Shown here piece after piece: positions 7,423-59,241 of a stretch of DNA of 64,000 nucleotides. Made by a program: the position numbers and the translations under genes. Origin of the DNA: a phage. Every line of letters begins with the position of its first letter. The first letter of the stretch is position 1. The DNA lies in the sequence record PV808484.1; one strand, 5' to 3'. Under the pieces are notes generated by a model. That model made no database searches, was not told the DNA's origin, and saw only the letters and a list, made by a program, of their open reading frames with translations.

Positions 7423-10002
7423 TCAATGACAACTAGCCCATGAGTTACCAACATCGTAACCAGCAGTGAGAGGTACATTAAGATTGTAATACTCACCAGC
7501 TTTATTAACAGCGATAGATGCTAATTCTCCAGCACGACTGTAGGCTGTAAACCAACCACCTTTTGGAGACTCATGTACGTTAGCCCAAATCTTGCCAGTA
7601 CGTTTCTCTTCCTCTTCTTTCCAGGCATTAACTTTATCCAAACATTCTTTATCAATTTTCTTTTGTTCATCTGGATCATCAACTTGAGTCCAACCTAAAG
7701 ATTCTTTAGAGAACCATTTAAAATGCACCAAATCACGAGTTACTTCAAGCTGTGCTTCATCGTGATATGCAATCATTTGTTGAACGAATGACTTATTTTT
7801 CCAGTCATCAACAAAAAAGTCAACAGCTAATCCTTCTTCTTCGATAAGATCGTCGTAGATAACCATTGCTCTTTTTGCACAAATAACACCACCACTCTGG
7901 AACAGAGAGTTAAGAATTGCGTGTGCAGATCGTGTAGGTACTTTTCTACCATCAATACCGAGAATGTATTTCTTACCTGTTTTAACCCAAAAATCATGCA
8001 GACGTTCTTTAAGAAGCGCAAGAGGTTTTGCAGCTTCCCAGAAAGCATCGTATACAAGCTGTCCTGTATACATATCACTACCTATAGTTTTTGCTACTTT
8101 TGCAGCTTGAGCACCATAAGTAATACCATACTTAACAGATTTAGCAGGGCTTCGTTCAAACTTACGACCAATAGTGTCAGAAATACGTCGAGCCATCATT
8201 GTATGAACATCATTGGGTTTTTCCAATAATAGAGCATTACAATATTCGTGTGGTTCCTGCTCGTACCGCCAACAGTAGTGTGATTCTATTTTTGCCTCAA
8301 GAGAATCAAAGTCATAACCAATTTGGAAGTATTTTGGAACTTCTACACCAAATAAGTTACGCATTTCATATCCGTATAGAGATGTTACACGTGGAATATT
8401 TGCTACTAACCTATGTTTCATACGAGATGTAGCTGCATCACACGTTGCAGCAGGAGTTGGTATACGACCATCAGCCCTTACTGCTGCCAGATAACCTTTA
8501 TCGTAATCCTCTTCATCTTCTTCCCAATCAGCACCACCCCCTAGAATAGAGTTCCTACGGTGTTTATACGTAAGATACTGCACAATCTGCGTAGCATAAG
8601 GAAACTTTTCACCTAGTGCTTCCAAGTTAGGACAAATATCTTTCTCTTGCCCTTTTGTAAAGGAAGGGTTAGTAAGCACTTTAACACCACGACCTTTAGC
8701 TTTAGCAATACGATCTCTTAGTTTCCATTCCAAAGTTTCTGGTGTGCACTCCAGATGATCACATCTGTCCTGGCAGAAGTTAGATGCTAACGTTTGATCA
8801 ACATAGTCACGAATAGCTTTCTCCATCTGTGCTTCATCTTTCTTAATCTTAGTGCCAGATTTAAGAGTGATATCTTTATCTTTATATTCAGATGGACTCC
8901 AACCTAAACCAACTAACCAGTTTTTAATATGTGTAGTGTCGTCTAAAGTAGCAGGTACTGTAGGATCACAAATAGGTTCTTCTGCTGGAATAGGGAGTTT
9001 AAACTCTTTACCTAATGCAAATAACCACCAACCATCTTCTTTTTGTACAAGTTCACCAGAATGTTTCTCTGCAAACTTTATCATGTTACTTGAAGGTTCA
9101 CCATTCTTTTTAAACTGTAGTTTAGGTGGAATGAATGATTTCAAATAACCTTTAGTAGCAGGTTTAGGAGGTAGCACAGGTTCTGCCTCTAAACGACATG
9201 CTTCCATTCGAGCATCCAGATCACGAATATTATCTTCTGCTTGCTTCATGTTGAAAGCAAAGCCACGGTGCTCTTGACGTGTAATAATATCAGCTACACG
9301 TTGTTCTAAATTAAATGGTTCAGACCACTTATTATAATCACCCCACTCTTCCATTAAATAACGGAACACTGCGGTGTTAGCTTTGTTATCGTAAATACAG
9401 TAATACAGCATATCTGCTGCAAATGTTCTAAACCTTTCGGATTCAGGAATGTTTTTTCTGAAATCAATTTTAACATCCCCTCCAGCTTTCTTAGATAACT
9501 CTGCCAGACTATGACCACCGAAGCGATCAGGGTTTAGTGTCTTACTTAAGATCATAGTATCACAAATTTCAATGTTACTATTACCCCAAGTATTGTACTT
9601 AACACTGTAGTTGAGTTTAAAAAATAATTTAATTGCCAGTAAGTCGAAGTTAATGATGTTGTGTCCAACTACTTTGGTAATTTTATAGTTTGAATTACCT
9701 TTAAATTTACCTGTTCCATTTACAAAATCAGGAAAATCTTTAAGAGGGAAATGGGTATATTCTAAATGCTCATATTCCTCCAGTCGGTATTCATACTTTC
9801 CGTCAGTCTCAACATACGGACGACCATCGAAAAGATATTTATCACCATCATGGAAAGCAATAATCTCTCCAGTATCATGACTTTCGCACACAATACAGTG
9901 CATTGCAAAACTATCTTTTAAACGATATGGACTTGCCAAGTAATCTACACTTTCGTCATTAAGCAAGTTGTTACTTTCAATGTCGAAAGTAAAAGCTCCC
10001 AT
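7423..10002 (-). CDS. DNA polymerase, family A, with 3'-5' exonuclease domain
   Basis: 859 aa; N-terminal exo motif (FTFDIESNNL); Pol A motif B-like KSVKYGITYGAQAAK; strong RBS AAGGAGGG. Confidence 0.85.
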   Translation of the reverse strand: MGAFTFDIESNNLLNDESVDYLASPYRLKDSFAMHCIVCESHDTGEIIAFHDGDKYLFDGRPYVETDGKYEYRLEEYEHLEYTHFPLKDFPDFVNGTGKFKGNSNYKITKVVGHNIINFDLLAIKLFFKLNYSVKYNTWGNSNIEICDTMILSKTLNPDRFGGHSLAELSKKAGGDVKIDFRKNIPESERFRTFAADMLYYCIYDNKANTAVFRYLMEEWGDYNKWSEPFNLEQRVADIITRQEHRGFAFNMKQAEDNIRDLDARMEACRLEAEPVLPPKPATKGYLKSFIPPKLQFKKNGEPSSNMIKFAEKHSGELVQKEDGWWLFALGKEFKLPIPAEEPICDPTVPATLDDTTHIKNWLVGLGWSPSEYKDKDITLKSGTKIKKDEAQMEKAIRDYVDQTLASNFCQDRCDHLECTPETLEWKLRDRIAKAKGRGVKVLTNPSFTKGQEKDICPNLEALGEKFPYATQIVQYLTYKHRRNSILGGGADWEEDEEDYDKGYLAAVRADGRIPTPAATCDAATSRMKHRLVANIPRVTSLYGYEMRNLFGVEVPKYFQIGYDFDSLEAKIESHYCWRYEQEPHEYCNALLLEKPNDVHTMMARRISDTIGRKFERSPAKSVKYGITYGAQAAKVAKTIGSDMYTGQLVYDAFWEAAKPLALLKERLHDFWVKTGKKYILGIDGRKVPTRSAHAILNSLFQSGGVICAKRAMVIYDDLIEEEGLAVDFFVDDWKNKSFVQQMIAYHDEAQLEVTRDLVHFKWFSKESLGWTQVDDPDEQKKIDKECLDKVNAWKEEEEKRTGKIWANVHESPKGGWFTAYSRAGELASIAVNKAGEYYNLNVPLTAGYDVGNSWASCH

Positions 10003-42903: not shown

Positions 42904-44031
42904 ATGAAATACACGATTTATGGTGATATTGTAAGTGTAAATAAAGATATGGGCGTGGAATCTAACTACCTTCCACCTGGATTCTATACTGTTAGTCGTG
43001 ATCCCCTTGGCAATTATTTTTTAAGCCGTGGTAATCTGACAGGTGTACCGGATGTTCTGTATGGTGAAACAGAAAAACGAGCAAATCACGTTATCCGTAC
43101 ATTCCATCGCCGGAGTGCACAAGGTAAAAATACAGGTTTGCTCCTGACAGGAACTAAGGGCAGTGGTAAAACTATGTTAGCCAAACTCATTAGTCGTGAC
43201 CTTGTAGAAGAAGGTATTCCAACTATTATGGTTACTCAAGCCTACAGCGATGCTAATTTCATTGAACTTATTAGCAAGATCACCGACAAAGCAGTGATTA
43301 TTTTTGACGAGTTTGATAAAGTGTATGAGAAGAAACAAGATCAAGAAGCACTTCTCACTTTGTTAGATGGTACTGGCAGTGGTAATAAACTGTTTATTCT
43401 GACTAAAAACAGTGGTTTTATCTCTGAATTCTTTTTAAATCGTCCTAGTCGTGTGTTTTATAATTTTAATTATGATAAAATCTCACTAGAAACTATGATT
43501 GACTATTTAGATAAAAACCTGGATAACAAAGCACACTTTGATAATTTCCAAAGACTTTGGGATGTAAGTTTAGAGTTGTCCTTTGATGTGATCCAAGGTA
43601 TAGTAGAAGAACTTAATTTCTACCCTGATTTATCCTTTAAAGAATGCATCTCTATGATGGGCGTTTCTTTAGGTGGTGGTAATAAATGGGATATCAGCAG
43701 CGTTGTTATTAATGGAAAACTTCAGAAAGTTAGCTGGGTATCTAGTTGGCATAACTTCACACCTGCAATCTTTTTAGGTGGTTCGTGCACACTAGACGTG
43801 TACTTGTCATCTCCAAGTGATGCAGATTCTAAAGAAGCCCTTGCTAATAGCTCTTACGTGGTTTTTGATGATGAAGGCGATGCTCGAATTCCATTGAATG
43901 CGACAAAAATGAAAGCAGACCTTATCACAGGCGGTAAAATCGTTGTGTTTAGTGATGATCCAGAAGATTCTTTCCGTATTGTTCTGGAACCAACTATCAC
44001 CAATGGTGCAACTTTGGCAAGCGTGTTTTAA
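42904..44031 (+). CDS. P-loop ATPase, paralogue B
   Basis: 375 aa; Walker A GTKGSGKT, Walker B IIFDEFDK; collinear similarity to 27498..28658. Confidence 0.6.
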   Translation: MKYTIYGDIVSVNKDMGVESNYLPPGFYTVSRDPLGNYFLSRGNLTGVPDVLYGETEKRANHVIRTFHRRSAQGKNTGLLLTGTKGSGKTMLAKLISRDLVEEGIPTIMVTQAYSDANFIELISKITDKAVIIFDEFDKVYEKKQDQEALLTLLDGTGSGNKLFILTKNSGFISEFFLNRPSRVFYNFNYDKISLETMIDYLDKNLDNKAHFDNFQRLWDVSLELSFDVIQGIVEELNFYPDLSFKECISMMGVSLGGGNKWDISSVVINGKLQKVSWVSSWHNFTPAIFLGGSCTLDVYLSSPSDADSKEALANSSYVVFDDEGDARIPLNATKMKADLITGGKIVVFSDDPEDSFRIVLEPTITNGATLASVF

Positions 44032-44105: not shown

Positions 44106-45083
44106 ATGGCAGCACCAAAATCATGGGAACAATATAAAGAAGAGTGTATACCAATAGCAGAGAGTAAGCAAATCCAAATCTTAGGATGGACGGGACAATG
44201 GAAAGGGGGCCACACAAAACTTGATTTGTTGTGCCATTGTGGTTATAAATGGGATACTACAAGTATTAACAGTTTTAAATGTGGTAGCGGTTGTCCACAA
44301 TGTAAGAGGGAGAAACAAACAATGTCCGACGATCAACATATTGCAGGTTTCTTTTCTACAGGGAAATTTAAGGAAGGCACTATCTTCACTAACACAGGAA
44401 CACGGGGTAAAGGATGTAGGCATATTACCTGGATGGTTGAATGTCCTGTTTGCTCTCATGATGAATATGTTCAAGCAGGTGTTTGTGATGGTAAATTTTA
44501 CTCTAAAGGACATCGCCTTAAACAAGGGTATATTCCGTGTCGTTGTGGGAAATATCAGTATACAGAAGACCAGATCACCTATAGGGTAAAAAAGGAAGTA
44601 GAAGGGAAAGGGTATGTCTGGGTAGATTGGATTACCAAACCCTCTTCTATAGGTAAGTTTAAATATCTTTGTCTTGTGCATGGTGAGCAGATAGGGAGTG
44701 CTCGTAATTTATTAAGCCTCGGTCAAGGTTGTCCACAGTGTGCTGGTCATAGTCAACAGCAATTATATATTAATATTGTTAAAGATAATGATATTATAGT
44801 TGCTCTTAAGTTTGGTATAGCTAAAGATAGCGATAGACGATTAAACGGTCAAAATAGCCGTAATCTGTTTTTTATGGAGCGTATTTGTTTATATGATTTT
44901 AGCACAGTGAAACAATGTAAGGCTGCTGAAAGAGCTATAAAGAAAAAATTAAAAACTGGTATTTTAACGGCAAGAGAGTTGAAAGATGGTTATACAGAAA
45001 CAGTAAGTGTTTCTGATTTGGAAAATCTTCAAAAAATTATTACACAATATGGTGGCAAGTTAGTATACAGTAAGGAGGTGTAA
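44106..45083 (+). CDS. zinc-ribbon repeat protein, possible GIY-YIG-like (T5orf172-type) nuclease
   Basis: 325 aa; repeated G(S/Q)GCPQC units; C-terminal LYINIVKD...FGIAKDSDRR; low certainty. Confidence 0.4.
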   Translation: MAAPKSWEQYKEECIPIAESKQIQILGWTGQWKGGHTKLDLLCHCGYKWDTTSINSFKCGSGCPQCKREKQTMSDDQHIAGFFSTGKFKEGTIFTNTGTRGKGCRHITWMVECPVCSHDEYVQAGVCDGKFYSKGHRLKQGYIPCRCGKYQYTEDQITYRVKKEVEGKGYVWVDWITKPSSIGKFKYLCLVHGEQIGSARNLLSLGQGCPQCAGHSQQQLYINIVKDNDIIVALKFGIAKDSDRRLNGQNSRNLFFMERICLYDFSTVKQCKAAERAIKKKLKTGILTARELKDGYTETVSVSDLENLQKIITQYGGKLVYSKEV

Positions 45084-45635
45084 ATGCGGATTACTGATAA
45101 GTATGTGTTCTTCTTCTCGGCAAAAGATGAATTTAGCAACTGGTATCTATCATCTTTTATTGAACCTTTAGCTCCCAAGTATAATAATTCTATCACAAGT
45201 TCTGTCGAATTTACTTGTGTGGAACAATATATGATGTGGAGAAAAGCATGTTTATTTTATGATTACAACATTGCATCTTCTATTTTAACCGGAGATCTAA
45301 GATATACAGGAGAAAAAGAACAAGCATATTATAAGCGACTAGGTAGATTAGTTAAAGATTATGATGAAGATACCTGGACTTCTTTACGGGAGAAGATTGT
45401 CAAACGTGGTTTGTATCTTAAATACACACAAAATGAAGATCTCAAAAATAAACTTATAGCTTACGCAGATAAGGAGTTCGTAGAGGCAAGCCCTTATGAT
45501 TCTATTTATGGTATCAAAATGGGGATGTGGGATCGTGATGTTGAAAATAAGGATTGTTGGAAAGGACAAAATCTTTTAGGAAAATGGCATACAGACCTTG
45601 CTGTTTATCTAAAAGCACAATCTGATATTTCCTGA
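45084..45635 (+). CDS. NADAR (YbiA/DUF1768) domain protein
   Basis: 183 aa; VFFFSAKDEFSNWY, VEQYMMWRKA, YDSIYGIKMG match NADAR landmarks. Confidence 0.7.
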   Translation: MRITDKYVFFFSAKDEFSNWYLSSFIEPLAPKYNNSITSSVEFTCVEQYMMWRKACLFYDYNIASSILTGDLRYTGEKEQAYYKRLGRLVKDYDEDTWTSLREKIVKRGLYLKYTQNEDLKNKLIAYADKEFVEASPYDSIYGIKMGMWDRDVENKDCWKGQNLLGKWHTDLAVYLKAQSDIS

Positions 45636-45849
45636 TATTTTGAAAATTTTTATTTTTATAAAAAGGGGTGTGGGTTTCATGTACGGAAATCCACCCTCTG
45701 AATAATATATCCAGAGTAAGTATTATTCTGTACTCTGTTAATAAATTATTTAATTTGTTTGTTGGATTATGATATCTGGTTTTTAAAAGGCATACTATCT
45801 CTTAACTACTACTTATAACAGAACAGTAAAATCATTTTTATAAAAAGGA

Positions 45850-46055
45850 CAAAATTATTTAAAGTTTTTACAGATTTTTGGGTACAAATTTTGAAAATGA
45901 AAAGTTCAAGTTTGGTCAAAATTATTTAAAGTTTTTGTACGTATTTCCATCCAGATTTTGAAAATGAAAAGTTCAATTTTTTAAAAATTCCCCAGTTTAT
46001 TTAAAGTTTTTTTGCCTTTTTCCGTAGAAAAATCAAAAATGAAAAGTTCAATTTC
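45850..46055. repeat. three tandem ~67-bp direct repeats
   Basis: unit TATTTAAAGTTTTT ... TTTGAAAATGAAAAGTTCAA recurs at about 45856, 45923 and 45989. Confidence 0.6.
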
Positions 46056-46072
46056 GTGTTTTTATAGGTATG

Positions 46073-46190
46073 CGTATGATAATCATTCTCATTTGTAAAT
46101 GAGAATCATTATCATTTAATTATGTAAGTGATAATCATTCTCAGTAAGAGAATGAGAATCATTAGCAAATGAGAATTTTCTCATTTAGAG
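46073..46190. promoter_or_regulatory. cluster of three operator-like palindromes (Fur-box-like)
   Basis: GATAATCATTCTCATTT-GTA-AAATGAGAATCATTATC; GATAATCATTCTCA..GAGAATGAGAATCATTAGC; AAATGAGAATTTTCTCATTT. Confidence 0.5.
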
Positions 46191-46447
46191 AATAACGCGT
46201 AGGGGTGGTGTTTGTCTCGCGCTCCCGTGTCCCCTCGCCATACAATAAGAATAGCATAACCAACAACAAAAGCAAGCGATTATTTTTATCTTTACATTTC
46301 TTTACAAATTTATTTTAGACGAGCTACCGGCGATCAACCTTCCAACCAGTGTGCCCTGGTATGTTAGCCCCGCCTTTACGCCGTGGGGGTGGCGCTTCCT
46401 CTTCTGTATGTAAAACAGTATAAGCCCGATCCCTGGGCTTGTCAAGA

Positions 46448-46714
46448 TTATTTTTTGTTTTCTTGCCAGGATAGGACACCTAACCAAAAATACATGTCGC
46501 CCCGCGCCCCTGGCGGGATCTTGCTTTCCCCGCCGCCACTGCAAGCCCATAGATAACCATTTGCGAACGTATCAAAATGATCTATTTCTTCCACCTTATG
46601 ATCGCCCAGGTTGAGAACGGTTTCAACCTTTAAGCCCGTTGCGCTTGCTACCTGGTGCACCGTGCCGCCTTGCCAGCCTAATGAGTGCATGAGGTGTAAA
46701 GTAGTATTTGTCAT
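46448..46714 (-). CDS. hypothetical protein inside GC-rich island
   Basis: 88 aa from internal ATG 46714; opposite strand to neighbouring early genes; uncertain. Confidence 0.3.
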   Translation of the reverse strand: MTNTTLHLMHSLGWQGGTVHQVASATGLKVETVLNLGDHKVEEIDHFDTFANGYLWACSGGGESKIPPGARGDMYFWLGVLSWQENKK

Positions 46715-46824
46715 GGTATCGCCCTTTCTTTGATGTGCGCCCTGGTTGGCGCGGTAGAAAGATAATAGCCCCTTTCCTTTATAGATAGCAAGCAAAAAAG
46801 AAATGAAAAAAGATTAAAAAAGGG

Positions 46825-46853
46825 TTGACGTTCCTCACCTGGTAGCGTATTAT
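46825..46853 (+). promoter_or_regulatory. sigma70-like promoter
   Basis: TTGACG -17 bp- TATTAT; followed by strong SD and a 6-codon ORF (46907..46927). Confidence 0.45.
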
Positions 46854-46979
46854 TCATCTTGTCGAGGGGGGCGAGGCACAACGACAATAAACAAAAGGAG
46901 GGCGCAATGCAGGACGGGCAAAGGTGAGGATCTCCACAATCCACCGTCACAATAACATTACTTATAAAAGGTTGATAAC

Positions 46980-47075
46980 GATGATCAAGAAAGAAAACAG
47001 CTTGACGGTTGGAACGATTAACGCTATCATTTTCGCCGTTCCATTTTGGGTTGTAGTAGCGGTTATTATCTTTTA
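46980..47075 (+). CDS. small hydrophobic peptide (31 aa)
   Basis: MIKKENSLTVGTINAIIFAVPFWVVVAVIIF; AAAAGG upstream. Confidence 0.3.
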
Positions 47076-47130
47076 AAAATATTCTTGACAACGTTTTTTA
47101 ATCTGATAAGATGTATCACATAGGGCGGCA
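47075..47130 (+). promoter_or_regulatory. early promoter + 5' leader hairpin cassette
   Basis: TTGACA 47075-80, -10 TAAGAT, leader CACATAGG, hairpin GCGGC-AATAGT-GCCGC, ATG at 47165. Confidence 0.6.
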
Positions 47131-47164
47131 ATAGTGCCGCTCATAACAGAAGAGAGAAATAATC

Positions 47165-47437
47165 ATGGCATCATATAGCGCATCAATGATCGTAATGGGT
47201 ATCACTGGTAAACCTATGCGCGGTGGCGGATCTTTCGCTAACATCAATATTGATGGACGTTTATCCCTGGACGCAGCGATCACAGTGGCACGGGAAACAT
47301 TTAAAAAAGAATGTAATTTCAATAAACAAGATTATCTCGGTTTCGCTATTGAAAAAACCGCGCGATTTGTGGATTATAAAAGCCCGAAAATGATCGACAC
47401 TACACTAAAAGCGAAAGATGTAGCGTTTTTGCTTTAA
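47165..47437 (+). CDS. hypothetical early protein
   Basis: 90-aa ORF downstream of cassette. Confidence 0.5.
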   Translation: MASYSASMIVMGITGKPMRGGGSFANINIDGRLSLDAAITVARETFKKECNFNKQDYLGFAIEKTARFVDYKSPKMIDTTLKAKDVAFLL

Positions 47438-52640: not shown

Positions 52641-52943
52641 ATGAACGGCATAGCTAAAACGTTTTTTCTTTTTTCTGGTGTAAATGATCCATCAATAAAA
52701 GTCGATAGTGTAAAAGAAAACAATACTATCACCGCTAAATTGTTTCAAGATGAAACAAATAACGTGCTAATCATTAATCTTAAAGAAATAACTAAAGGTT
52801 ATTATACTATTGCTTACCATGCAATCTATCATGCTGGTACTAGTGAGGAAGTGCAAACAAGCAACAACGAAAGCGCGGCGCTACCTGGTGATCTGGTGCT
52901 GGGCGTTATCAGTTTAATTGTCAATGATTTTTTTAAGGAGTAA
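52641..52943 (+). CDS. hypothetical protein
   Basis: 100 aa; AAGGAGAA upstream. Confidence 0.45.
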   Translation: MNGIAKTFFLFSGVNDPSIKVDSVKENNTITAKLFQDETNNVLIINLKEITKGYYTIAYHAIYHAGTSEEVQTSNNESAALPGDLVLGVISLIVNDFFKE

Positions 52944-52947
52944 AACC

Positions 52948-53043
52948 ATGCCCTATTTACATTTATTTTTCGGTATCTTATTGACAGGATCTTTTTTCTT
53001 CTGTATGCTTGTTTCTATTGTAAACCACGTTTTAAGACATTAA
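52948..53043 (+). CDS. small hydrophobic peptide (31 aa)
   Basis: not in ORF track; AAGGAG upstream. Confidence 0.3.
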   Translation: MPYLHLFFGILLTGSFFFCMLVSIVNHVLRH

Positions 53044-53052
53044 GGAAACAGC

Positions 53053-53172
53053 ATGAAAATTATTCCCGTACAATATAGCGTAATAAATCCAGCATACGAG
53101 GAAGGAAGGAAAACAAGCATGGCTTTATGTTGTATTGCTACTATAGCCATGTTGTTATGCATTGTGTTTTAA
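53053..53172 (+). CDS. small peptide with hydrophobic C-terminus (39 aa)
   Basis: not in ORF track; AAGGAAACAGC upstream. Confidence 0.3.
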   Translation: MKIIPVQYSVINPAYEEGRKTSMALCCIATIAMLLCIVF

Positions 53173-56725: not shown

Positions 56726-57109
56726 ATGAGCAATATCATCAACCTGGCAGCGACTGTAAACGGTAAAGACTTTAACGGCGCTGTAGACCGTGATCCTATG
56801 TGGTGCTTATCAGTGTTTAAAGGCGATCTGGTTGAAGTTAGAACAACCGAAGGGTATAGCGATGATTATAAATGCGAGATCCATTTACATAACTGGTACA
56901 CGGGGAAAACTTATGCGCTGAATCACGCGTTTATCGGGAAAATTGAATATCGCGAGATGATCGACGATGAAACGGGGCAAGATTTTAGTGATTATGTTTA
57001 TATTCGTTCAGAAACATTAGCCGAACGTTTGATCGAGAAAATGAAAGCAAAAAATAAAATTAATTTAGCTCATTGGCTTGATATAACAAATGATCCGGCT
57101 TACAAGTAA
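56726..57109 (+). CDS. hypothetical protein
   Basis: 127-aa ORF. Confidence 0.5.
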   Translation: MSNIINLAATVNGKDFNGAVDRDPMWCLSVFKGDLVEVRTTEGYSDDYKCEIHLHNWYTGKTYALNHAFIGKIEYREMIDDETGQDFSDYVYIRSETLAERLIEKMKAKNKINLAHWLDITNDPAYK

Positions 57110-57123
57110 ATAACATTTCATAC

Positions 57124-57150
57124 CAGGGCGCACAAAGCGCCCTTTCTTTT
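57124..57150 (+). terminator. rho-independent terminator
   Basis: GGGCGC-ACAAA-GCGCCC followed by TTTCTTTTT. Confidence 0.65.
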
Positions 57151-57354
57151 TACCTAAATAAAGATGATAGCTTTTACCTATCAAAAACATTCACCGAAAA
57201 AAGTGAATAGATCGCGGTATCGAGCTAATCAAGGAGCAGATGAACAACCATACCATGAAGATCATAAGGCGCTTACAACGTGTTTTAAACCGCTTATTTT
57301 TAATTTCTCCATGTAACTATCTGGCAAAAACAGCCTTTTTCGTGTCTTTCCTCT

Positions 57355-57435
57355 TAAGTGATAATCATTCTTATTTATAGCTGATTATTTATGCAATAAA
57401 CTGCATAATGCAATAATGATAATCATTCTTAACTT
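57355..57435. promoter_or_regulatory. pair of Fur-box-like sites
   Basis: GTGATAATCATTCTTA at about 57358 and AATGATAATCATTCTTA at about 57414. Confidence 0.45.
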
Positions 57436-57439
57436 ATGA

Positions 57440-57780
57440 CCATCTAACCTATAAAATAATAAGTTATCTAACTAAATTAAAGCTAATTATTTCACCTTTA
57501 TTTATAACTTACTGTTACTATCTCATTGATAACCTTATATTAAACAACAATAACTAATATAAATCATTACTAAGCTAAATATAATCTATCTAACCTTTAA
57601 AACTATAACTATAATCTATCGAATTGTTGCACAAAGTAACTATTAAATTGTTAGTAACATTACTAAATAATTCATATCCTATCTATTTATGATCTAATCT
57701 TTACTTTCCTATCTATTACCTAAATAATCCTATCATACAGTTACCATTTCATGTAATAATCATTTCATACAATAACTATA
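57440..57780. repeat. AT-rich iteron-like short repeats
   Basis: recurring CTATCTAACCT / CTATCTAT / ATAACTATAA words in 340 bp without coding potential. Confidence 0.45.
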
Positions 57781-57837
57781 ACAAGAAATATAATTCGCAA
57801 GCGTATCATTAGCAGCCTATGCCGGACACATAGGCGG

Positions 57838-57985
57838 CTAATAATAACGCAACTACACACCCCACATAATAACCATCACCGATAGTTATTATTTGTGCTT
57901 ATGTAGCTTGCAACAATTGCAAGCGCAACAATATACATGGTATATTGTATCCCTTACATTGTTGCGGTGCGTTATTATTAGCTAA
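57838..57985. repeat. long-range inverted repeat with internal palindrome
   Basis: GCTAATAATAACGCAAC ... GTTGCGGTGCGTTATTATTAGC ~110 bp apart; internal CTTGCAACAATTGCAAG. Confidence 0.45.
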
Positions 57986-58282
57986 TGTTTGGAACATTGG
58001 CTATAATATAAGCTAAATAATAAGCTATTCAATAATAAACATAATGAATAATGACACTGATGATCATAATGCGCCACCTTCCAGGGGGCGCTATGTGAAC
58101 ACAAAGAAATCTTTCTTGTCAAGAAAAATATTAACACTATTGCGCAAAATTATTTATGTCTGAATAGATGATTTTTCATACTATTGTTATTATTTATCGG
58201 CCCTAACTATTGCCTATTTGTTGAGCCTACTTTCTTAAAAGCGCAATAAATCAGAATTATCTTGATTTTTAGGGTGTTTTAT

Positions 58283-58305
58283 AGTATAGAAAATATGCAA
58301 ATGAT
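58283..58305. promoter_or_regulatory. Fur-box-like site (17/19 match to GATAATGATAATCATTATC)
   Basis: GCAAATGATAATCATTATC read directly. Confidence 0.5.
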
Positions 58306-58482
58306 AATCATTATCAGCTATCTTCCACGGGTGGCACTATTTCACGCAGGATCATTTCATTTGGCAAGGTGTATATAGATGTTTAGACTTGCCAAGCCAT
58401 TGATTTACTTAGAATTTATCTGTTTTGTTGTGAGTAGTACCTTTCTTGCTCAGAAAATAATCAAAAGTCTTATAAGTCATTG

Positions 58483-58515
58483 AATGATAATGCAAATGAT
58501 AATTATTCTCATTGA
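58483..58515. promoter_or_regulatory. overlapping Fur-box-like sites
   Basis: GAATGATAATGCAAATGATAATTATTCTCATTGAT. Confidence 0.45.
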
Positions 58516-58632
58516 TATTTGAGGGGGACGGTCGGCAGAAATCGGGGGGCGCTGAAAATCGCGTTAAGCACCTCTCGCAAGCGAGCAGTATTTTGCGGCA
58601 AGTTATTGATATTATTGGCTTTACGCTTATGG

Positions 58633-58730
58633 AAAGGGGGTGTGTCGAAATAAATCGGGTATACCGGAAAATTTTTGTGGCATAGATATTTATTTGTCTA
58701 TATTATGTACAAAGGGGTGTGTTAAAAATA
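58633..58730 (+). repeat. two copies of AAAGGGGTGTGT-containing ~35-bp direct repeat upstream of paralogue array
   Basis: AAAGGGGGTGTGTCGAAATAAATCGGGTATACC and AAAGGGGTGTGTTAAAAATATTAGGTATATA; third core copy at 45661. Confidence 0.45.
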
Positions 58731-58872
58731 TTAGGTATATATAGAATAATTGATAGGGAAATCCTATACTAATTCCTCCATTAATGATGTTTCTATGTTG
58801 CTGTTCTTGTAACAGATGAAAAGACGCTGTATGATGTGTAGCATGAAACGTAAATTTATAAAGGAGTCTGAT

Positions 58873-59241
58873 ATGTGTGTTCCTCTTAGCAGTCCTCTGC
58901 TGTTAGAATTTTACAAAGCATGGATGGAAGATCATTCCTCAATGCATCGTGAGAATGTTGGTTTGTGTAATTGCCTTATGGATTACCTGGCAACCACTAT
59001 GTCAAAGAAAAAGCCTACGGAAGAAGATATAGAATATTTCAAGATGGTTCGTAGCAAAACGCTGAAAGAGATGAAACTGCAATTCACGTGTGCTGGGCTA
59101 TCCTCCTTCCTACCCTTTAATTATGATCTTCTATGTTATGAAGATGAAGGTAAGACACATTCTTGCCATACCAACCCAAAGAGATTGCAGTGGGTGAAAG
59201 ATCGTATTGCCGATTCATGTTTGGTGTTAGGGGGGTGGTAA
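58873..59241 (+). CDS. paralogue family protein 1 (Cys/His small protein)
   Basis: start moved to ATG 58873 (AAGGAG upstream); FYKAW..GLCNCL.DY and HTNPKRLQWVKDRI. Confidence 0.5.
   Translation: MCVPLSSPLLLEFYKAWMEDHSSMHRENVGLCNCLMDYLATTMSKKKPTEEDIEYFKMVRSKTLKEMKLQFTCAGLSSFLPFNYDLLCYEDEGKTHSCHTNPKRLQWVKDRIADSCLVLGGW

Follow-up and report, generated by a model that had tools for sequence, protein, structure and literature searches.

Genomic context of the repeat array

The stretch of DNA analysed here (the window; 64,000 nucleotides of sequence record PV808484.1) belongs to a phi92-like phage (Justusliebigvirus, Stephanstirmvirinae), and the 2.2 kb around the array described below are 96-98% identical to many Escherichia phages, including the named Justusliebigvirus relatives EmilieFrey, outra, alia and phi92. 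The array consists of three bipartite units (45855-45909, 45922-45976 and 45997-46051) and in the GenBank records of alia and inny it is already labelled 'repeat_region', without comment. The features of the locus are as follows.

42904-44031: AAA+ ATPase with a beta domain at its N-terminus and a beta-rich domain at its C-terminus
45084-45635, plus strand: NADAR-domain gene, upstream of the array (Pfam NADAR, E = 2.5e-36)
45855-45909: repeat unit 1, with box A (45855-45869), a variable 24 nt and box B (45894-45909), found by exact box matches and a repeat search
45922-45976: repeat unit 2, with box A (45922-45936) and box B (45961-45976), starting 67 bp after unit 1
45977-45996: spacer between units 2 and 3, TTTTTTAAAAATTCCCCAGT, conserved in relatives and the source of an extra 8 bp
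45997-46051: repeat unit 3, with box A (45997-46011) and box B (46036-46051), starting 75 bp after unit 2
46072-46176: four overlapping Fur-box-like palindromes of the TGATAATCATTCTCA type, with 15-mers at 46077, 46100, 46129 and 46153
46186-46445: conserved motif block with the direct repeat CTTTACATTTCTTTACAAA, the stretch ACCGGCGAT...GCCCCGCCTTTACGCCGTGGGGG and a minus-strand promoter, from an alignment of eight divergent phages
46448-46714, minus strand: 88-aa ORF that closes the module on the right (phrog_19316, E = 2e-59, no known function)

The original prediction placed the repeats in non-coding DNA downstream of a NADAR gene and just upstream of operator-like palindromes, and each part of this description holds: the Pfam match identifies the gene, no ORF of at least 40 aa is present on either strand between 45636 and 46301, and the palindromes form a real cluster at 46072-46176. 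The NADAR gene is followed by a hairpin (45664-45699, -20.1 kcal/mol) with a folding signal on the plus strand (z = -3.3; minus strand, -0.86), and the idea that leftward transcripts end there was dropped, as the hairpin is stable as plus-strand RNA only. The ~170 nt segment between the NADAR gene and repeat unit 1 is flanked by two copies of the 15-mer ATTTTTATAAAAAGG (45652-45666 and 45834-45848), 182 bp apart.

The N-terminal part of the 88-aa ORF carries a conserved LGWQGGTVHQV...GL motif, and the C-terminal half is variable and ends in FW.GVL; neither Pfam nor NCBIfam gives a match. Homologues were detected by tblastn in 152 phage records. The ORF always bounds the non-coding module. The idea that the protein sets the specificity of the boxes found no support, since it is 100% identical in phage ESCO13 despite a differing box B.

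On the other side of the NADAR gene, the AAA+ ATPase shows weak Hda-, DnaC- and IstB-like sequence matches, while its AlphaFold model (pLDDT 86.7) matches the classical AAA proteins Bcs1, Rpt, NSF and FtsH. As the predicted fold is not that of DnaA, DnaC or Orc, the protein was rejected as a candidate initiator. It is variously annotated as an ATPase, an FtsH-like protease or a replicative helicase, and judging from the model the 'helicase' label, used in one record, looks wrong. Between this gene and the NADAR gene, 44106-45083 encodes a protein with CapR and T5orf172 (endonuclease-type) domains whose size varies (325 aa here, 465 aa in alia), and in the Klebsiella and Citrobacter relatives only small ORFs (65-113 aa) occupy this position. 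The gene is possibly a mobile one for a homing endonuclease. No Rep-, O- or DnaA-like initiator gene was found among the neighbours of the array.

Architecture of the repeat units

Each unit is built from two conserved elements, box A (TTATTTAAAGTTTTT) and box B (AAAATGAAAAGTTCAA), with exact copies at 45855, 45922 and 45997 for box A and at 45894, 45961 and 46036 for box B. The offset from box A to box B is 39 bp in all three units, while the ~24 nt between them differ from unit to unit, and each unit contains T-tracts followed by A-tracts. The three direct repeats first noted at this locus are therefore present, with both boxes exact and at matching offsets, but each unit is made up of two conserved boxes around a variable middle and is not a uniform 67-mer, and the 'regular' spacing of ~67 bp is an approximation of steps of 67 and then 75 bp. 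A repeat search of the window likewise returned three copies of a 79-nt unit at spacings of 67 and 75, whereas the 8-bp shift of the third unit leaves Tandem Repeats Finder with just 2.0 copies at a period of 67.

The boxes are specific to this site. The sole further match to box A in the 64 kb has two mismatches, and box B has no fourth match at up to two mismatches; in a shuffle control, box B averaged 0.32 matches and none of 100 shuffles reached three. A genome-wide motif was rejected on these grounds, exact copies being confined to the array within the 64 kb, and a host origin of the array was rejected because no match was found in 5,426 E. coli genomes.

Conservation of the array and its geometry

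The array is kept in all sampled Stephanstirmvirinae relatives, and 56 phage records, from Justusliebigvirus and its close relatives, cover it in full, mostly at 97-99% identity. Absence or lack of conservation in close relatives had been set beforehand as evidence against function; the repeats are both present and conserved. In an alignment of four Justusliebigvirus genomes (the window, inny, phi92 and alia) the array is nearly invariant and the differences fall mostly inside the variable middles, the exceptions being a single base of box B in unit 2, another immediately 5' of unit 1 and, in phi92, an insertion of 1 nt. As a check, the original prediction had proposed comparing copy number across related phages, and there is no change among the 56 close relatives: apparent variation in the form of 229-bp spans proved to be an artefact of joined BLAST pieces, and the alignment with inny, alia and phi92 shows no change. 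Several records that are ~97-98% identical to E. coli Justusliebigvirus in this region are labelled as phages of other hosts, namely 'Campylobacter phage' records (MG065639, MG065645, MG065656 and MG065689) and single 'Acinetobacter' and 'Pseudomonas' phage records; these host labels are probably wrong or the result of contamination.

Across a broader sample of 27 units from nine Stephanstirmvirinae phages, both boxes are conserved, unlike the ~22-nt middle between them, giving a column profile of TTATTTAAAgtTTTT, ~22 unconserved positions and aAAA..aAAAttTaAA.TTt. Three units persist in the Klebsiella phages phi1_175008, KP2025, FKP3 and KP13-26, in Citrobacter phage Tr1, and in the Phapecoctavirus phages ESCO13, ZCKP1 and phiWec190. 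The spacer between units 2 and 3 (a T-run, an A-run and CCCCAG) is also conserved in the Klebsiella and Citrobacter relatives. A LexA box (CTGT-N8-ACAG) was considered and rejected, as it was found in unit 2 of the KP2025 clade only.

The layout of the array is retained where its sequence is not. In type I phages the units are spaced 66-68 and then 75-76 bp apart, with a first-to-third distance of 141-143 bp, and in Phapecoctavirus, where box A of unit 2 is degenerate, this distance is 138-139 bp. Salmonella phage SSBI34 (Vequintavirinae) carries three direct repeats of a different, 59-nt unit beside its homologue of the 88-aa ORF, spaced 77 and 65 bp apart in the orientation of the window (sum 142). 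Scanning IMG/VR with a motif from the conserved block yielded seven further rV5/phi92-like contigs, in each of which a further unit sequence (GGTTCTCGATCG...GATCGTATT...AAAAAATTTTT), with 5-7 GATC sites per array, is repeated exactly three times at spacings of 74/67, 74/68 or 78/63, which again sum to 141-142. Type II arrays hold 5-7 GATC sites in ~200 bp, within the short palindromes CTCGATCGAG and GAGATCTC, and have a GC content of 33-51%, compared with none or one GATC site and 17-24% GC in type I arrays; the abundance of these sites may point to an involvement of Dam or SeqA in the type II lineages. The exception is Klebsiella phage FBKp34, where a 45-nt unit occurs just twice, at a distance of 186 bp. 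The array is always positioned just upstream of the Fur-box-like cluster and the conserved motif block, and the Fur-like and CTTTACA motifs of this neighbourhood are unchanged between lineages, unlike the sequence of the array unit.

Because copy number, span and position are kept while the unit sequence turns over, they appear to be under selection. Such conserved geometry combined with lineage-specific sequence suggests sites that co-evolve with a lineage-specific, probably phage-encoded, binding protein. It also bears on whether the units are simply what is left of an ancient triplication, now neutral and functionless. AT-rich DNA is prone to tandem duplication, yet a remnant would hardly retain its copy number and span across two subfamilies despite sequence turnover, nor conserve its boxes and not its spacers and show no copy-number change in 56 close relatives, making this explanation highly improbable.

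Predicted physical properties and tests for RNA or promoter function

Curvature was predicted with a dinucleotide wedge model, using Bolshoy-Trifonov values. The array has the highest predicted curvature in the 64 kb, both at the 31 bp scale (59.6 degrees at 45874) and at the 126 bp scale (136.7 degrees at 46009, the window maximum), and the mean for the array region is 39 degrees versus 17.5 for the window. The arrays of phi92 and EmilieFrey are predicted to be similarly curved and those of most other relatives show raised values, while that of Klebsiella phage phi1_175008 has almost no excess. In a nearest-neighbour calculation, only one 200-bp stretch of the window, at 57419-57618, is less stable than 45702-45901 (z = 3.6), a result that places the AT-rich feature of a DNA-unwinding element beside the array. 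Both the curvature and the low helix stability are model predictions.

These properties raise the possibility that the array is purely architectural, a bent segment recognised by shape and bound by the host nucleoid proteins H-NS, Fis, IHF or HU without any dedicated protein. The top predicted curvature of the window, the 17-24% GC of type I arrays and the succession of T-tracts and A-tracts in each unit would all fit such a role. It sits poorly with the conservation of specific 15-16-nt boxes while the adjacent AT-rich sequence drifts, and with the type II arrays, whose GC content and GATC-rich palindromes indicate that composition is not what is conserved. As curvature is also not raised in every relative and no match to the IHF consensus occurs within the units, a purely architectural role is considered unlikely.

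A structured non-coding RNA was rejected, as the array has no Rfam match even at E up to 5 and no folding signal relative to shuffles on either strand (z = +0.95 and +0.23); the window also contains no tRNA. The array was similarly rejected as a promoter cluster. No sigma-70 geometry is conserved in the units, the one weak match (9/12, minus strand) being confined to a single unit, and although box A includes TAAAGTTT, a sigma-28-like -35 element, inspection of the 27-unit alignment by eye revealed no conserved -10 element after it. None of the three units contains a DnaA box, and the region 45600-47200 contains no exact one, only 9-mers with one mismatch.

Fur-box-like palindromes, the conserved motif block and promoters

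The palindromes to the right of the array match the E. coli Fur consensus GATAATGATAATCATTATC at 15-16 of 19 positions, and their 15-mer is found 23 times in the window where 4.3 matches would be expected. The offsets of the Fur-like boxes from unit 1 are fixed in type I phages, at 222, 245, 274 and ~300 bp, with the CTTTACA motif following at 380-456 bp, and in more distant lineages Fur-like boxes also follow the array, at offsets of their own. No paper on Fur boxes in lytic coliphages was found.

Conservation in the adjoining block (46186-46445) exceeds that of the flanking genes, and the eight-phage alignment gave no convincing conserved RNA structure on either strand. Its direct repeat CTTTACATTTCTTTACAAA (46290-46308) does not vary within the phage group and reads GTAAA-N5-GTAAA, the CpxR consensus, on the opposite strand. 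This 19-mer is also present in 65 IMG/VR stretches (twice per contig in T5-sized contigs) and in many contigs lies ~6-10 nt upstream of the -35 element of sigma-70-like promoters, a placement that suggests a widespread promoter-upstream element. The block ends in a near-consensus minus-strand promoter that faces the array (TTGACA-17-TATACT, 46445 to 46417; 11/12 in the promoter scan) and is kept in all eight aligned phages, 350-560 bp from the array. Its spacer forms a hairpin that covaries between phages and directly follows the stop codon of the 88-aa ORF, so that the hairpin may double as terminator and promoter spacer. No ORF of at least 40 aa starts downstream of this promoter. On the far side of the 88-aa ORF, three sigma-70-like promoters (46825-47112) head a rightward block of small genes.

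With these elements nearby, the array could instead control transcription, a phage or host regulator on the three units acting together with Fur on the adjacent boxes to loop or silence the DNA. Possible targets would be the leftward promoter (46445-46417), the 88-aa gene or the rightward early promoters (46825-47112), and in a variant the array would act as an insulator between the early transcription unit and that of the NADAR gene. The location of the array at the boundary of two plus-strand gene blocks, close to Fur boxes and sigma-70-like promoters, is consistent with such a role, as is its fixed distance to the Fur-like boxes, compatible with one regulatory complex that includes both. 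Regulated promoters often have curved DNA upstream, and no other part of the window is predicted to be as strongly curved as the array. However, no promoter lies within ~150 bp of the array, no regulator was identified, and the boxes are absent elsewhere in the 64 kb, hence they are not shared by any wider set of regulated genes. A 200-bp platform of three units would also be large for a simple operator. Transcriptional control is thus a possible role for the array, though on balance a doubtful one.

Relationship of the array to the genome ends

Short direct terminal repeats have been determined in independent PhageTerm analyses for two relatives, BME3 (342 bp; PMC12210895) and FKP3 (317 bp; PMC11663894). 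Both map to 58224-58678 of the window, ~12.3 kb to the right of the array (~8% of the genome), and the physical genome ends therefore probably lie in the 57000-58900 region, at ~58.2-58.7 kb. This is a second ORF-poor, AT-rich region that includes the least stable DNA of the window (57419-57618) and has Fur-like boxes at 57359, 57417, 58302 and 58497, the best of which matches at 17/19 (starting at 58297). As the terminal repeats map ~12 kb away, the array was rejected as a genome end or pac site, and it is not near a terminase gene. The ends of the phiWec187 record (LC739536) share a 148-bp overlap that maps to 52928-53075, in the block of small genes, and is probably an assembly overlap and not a true terminal repeat. 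A region of phage rV5 described as 'non-coding' (104013-106618) was examined as a possible homologue and set aside, since its repeats are different and not homologous to the array.

The array was also considered as a component of a signal for DNA entry or packaging, on the model of the T5 injection-stop signal or of terminase recognition sites (lambda cosB R1-R3, P1 pac). The adjoining Fur-like boxes have counterparts of the same kind in direct repeat C and palindromes E-J of T5, the array lies ~8% of the genome from the terminal repeat where the T5 stop signal lies at 7.9%, and type II arrays are GATC-rich, as is the pac site of P1. The position of the physical ends at 58.2-58.7 kb, and not at the array, argues against this role, as does the transcription of the intervening genes toward the end, unlike in T5. 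The array also has no DnaA boxes, the literature found contains no report of two-step injection for this phage group, and the agreement at 8% may be a coincidence. An entry or packaging signal is therefore regarded as quite improbable.

Proposed function of the array

The evidence best fits a protein-binding platform, a cis-acting element in which three bipartite sites (each with box A, a 24-nt middle and box B) are held at a fixed geometry of ~142 bp on AT-rich DNA that is predicted to be curved and easily melted. Of the two possibilities originally raised, iterons or an array of regulatory sites, conservation and geometry support the general idea, and suggest a functional array of protein-binding sites. 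Each unit would be bound by a sequence-specific, probably phage-encoded, protein, and the bound proteins would build a higher-order protein-DNA complex beside the Fur-box-like cluster. Among the roles considered, this complex would most likely serve as a replication origin or an origin-like control point, an assignment that is itself tentative, and the conserved leftward sigma-70 promoter ~350-560 bp away may supply activating or priming transcription.

The origin reading draws on the repeats, the bent and easily melted DNA predicted around them, the adjacent Fur-like sites, the facing promoter and the occurrence of the site only once in the genome. Counting against it are the lack of an initiator gene nearby, the lack of an exact DnaA box and dimensions that are not those of iterons. 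Further points against it are the location of the least stable DNA elsewhere, the 350-560 bp between promoter and array, the two copies of FBKp34 and the barely curved array of phi1_175008. No paper on the array repeats was found, nor any published experimental or transcript data for the phi92-like group or any report of a replication origin or early control region in phi92-like or rV5-like phages; in the rV5 genome paper, a skew search for the origin gave only changes that follow the direction of transcription.

Phi92-like and rV5-like phages are widely isolated and are considered for therapy, and the array represents a concrete, conserved and easily deleted candidate cis-element in their genomes. 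Its binding protein might be traced by looking for proteins whose variation parallels the array type.

Comparison with known systems

The array matches no annotated family and belongs to the repeat-array class of cis-elements, several members of which share part of its organisation. In lambda cosB (R3, R2 and R1 with an IHF site), three spaced repeats on bent DNA assemble a protein complex, as would the units here on DNA predicted to be bent. In contrast to cosB and other terminase arrays, the present array is near neither the genome ends (~12 kb away) nor a terminase gene. The T4 origins oriF and oriG and the primary origin of T7 resemble the locus in having a strong promoter directed into AT-rich DNA of low stability. 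They differ in that their promoters are much closer, whereas here the promoter is 350-560 bp away with Fur-like boxes in between, and to our knowledge none of them has a three-unit repeat platform.

The iterons of lambda ori, P1 oriR, pSC101 and R6K are similar in comprising direct, sequence-specific sites (three here) in non-coding, AT-rich, bent DNA (bent by prediction in the present case) beside sites for host factors, and in combining a lineage-specific sequence with a conserved layout. The repeats were originally called typical of iterons or of arrays of regulatory sites, and for iterons their dimensions contradict this: iterons are 17-22 bp long at a spacing of ~22 bp, while the units here are bipartite, 55-60 bp long and spaced 67/75 bp apart. 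There is also no adjacent Rep- or O-type initiator, and Fur-like sites take the place of DnaA boxes, of which no exact copy is present. As three of the four testable iteron features fail, the array is described as iteron-like and not as a set of iterons.

Repeat Region 3 of T5, a candidate injection-stop region, consists of two 66-bp repeats with paired DnaA boxes, followed by palindromes (Davison, bioRxiv 10.1101/866236). The preprint discusses the DnaA boxes of this region and does not use the term 'Fur box'. In the T5 genome (AY587007), direct repeat C and palindromes E-J at 9468-9637 correspond to AAATGAGAATCATTATCATT, which matches the Fur consensus at 15-16 of 19 positions, and BLAST links 46070-46190 of the window to T5-like phages. 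Both systems thus have a large untranslated region in which repeats of ~66 bp lie directly 5' of Fur-like palindromes of the AAATGAGAATCATT type, and both lie ~8% of the genome from one end. They differ in that T5 has two repeats, located inside a 10-kb terminal repeat, and the present phage three, located 12 kb from a terminal repeat of 0.3 kb; in that the paired DnaA boxes of the T5 repeats have no counterpart here; and in their dissimilar unit sequences.

Parts of the array, Fur-like and CTTTACA arrangement are also seen in the T5 injection-stop region and, in both phage groups, close to the terminal repeats. It is conceivable, if unlikely, that the array, the Fur-box-like cluster and the CTTTACA repeat form a single module of fixed geometry that makes phage replication or DNA entry depend on host state, for example on iron status sensed via Fur; if so, unrelated large coliphages would share a previously unrecognised cis-element that depends on a host factor. 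The Fur-like boxes held in common with T5 likewise give rise to the idea that large lytic coliphages read the iron status of the host through non-coding DNA. By analogy, then, the closest structural parallel to the array is Repeat Region 3 of T5, and its closest functional counterpart would be the iterons of replication origins.
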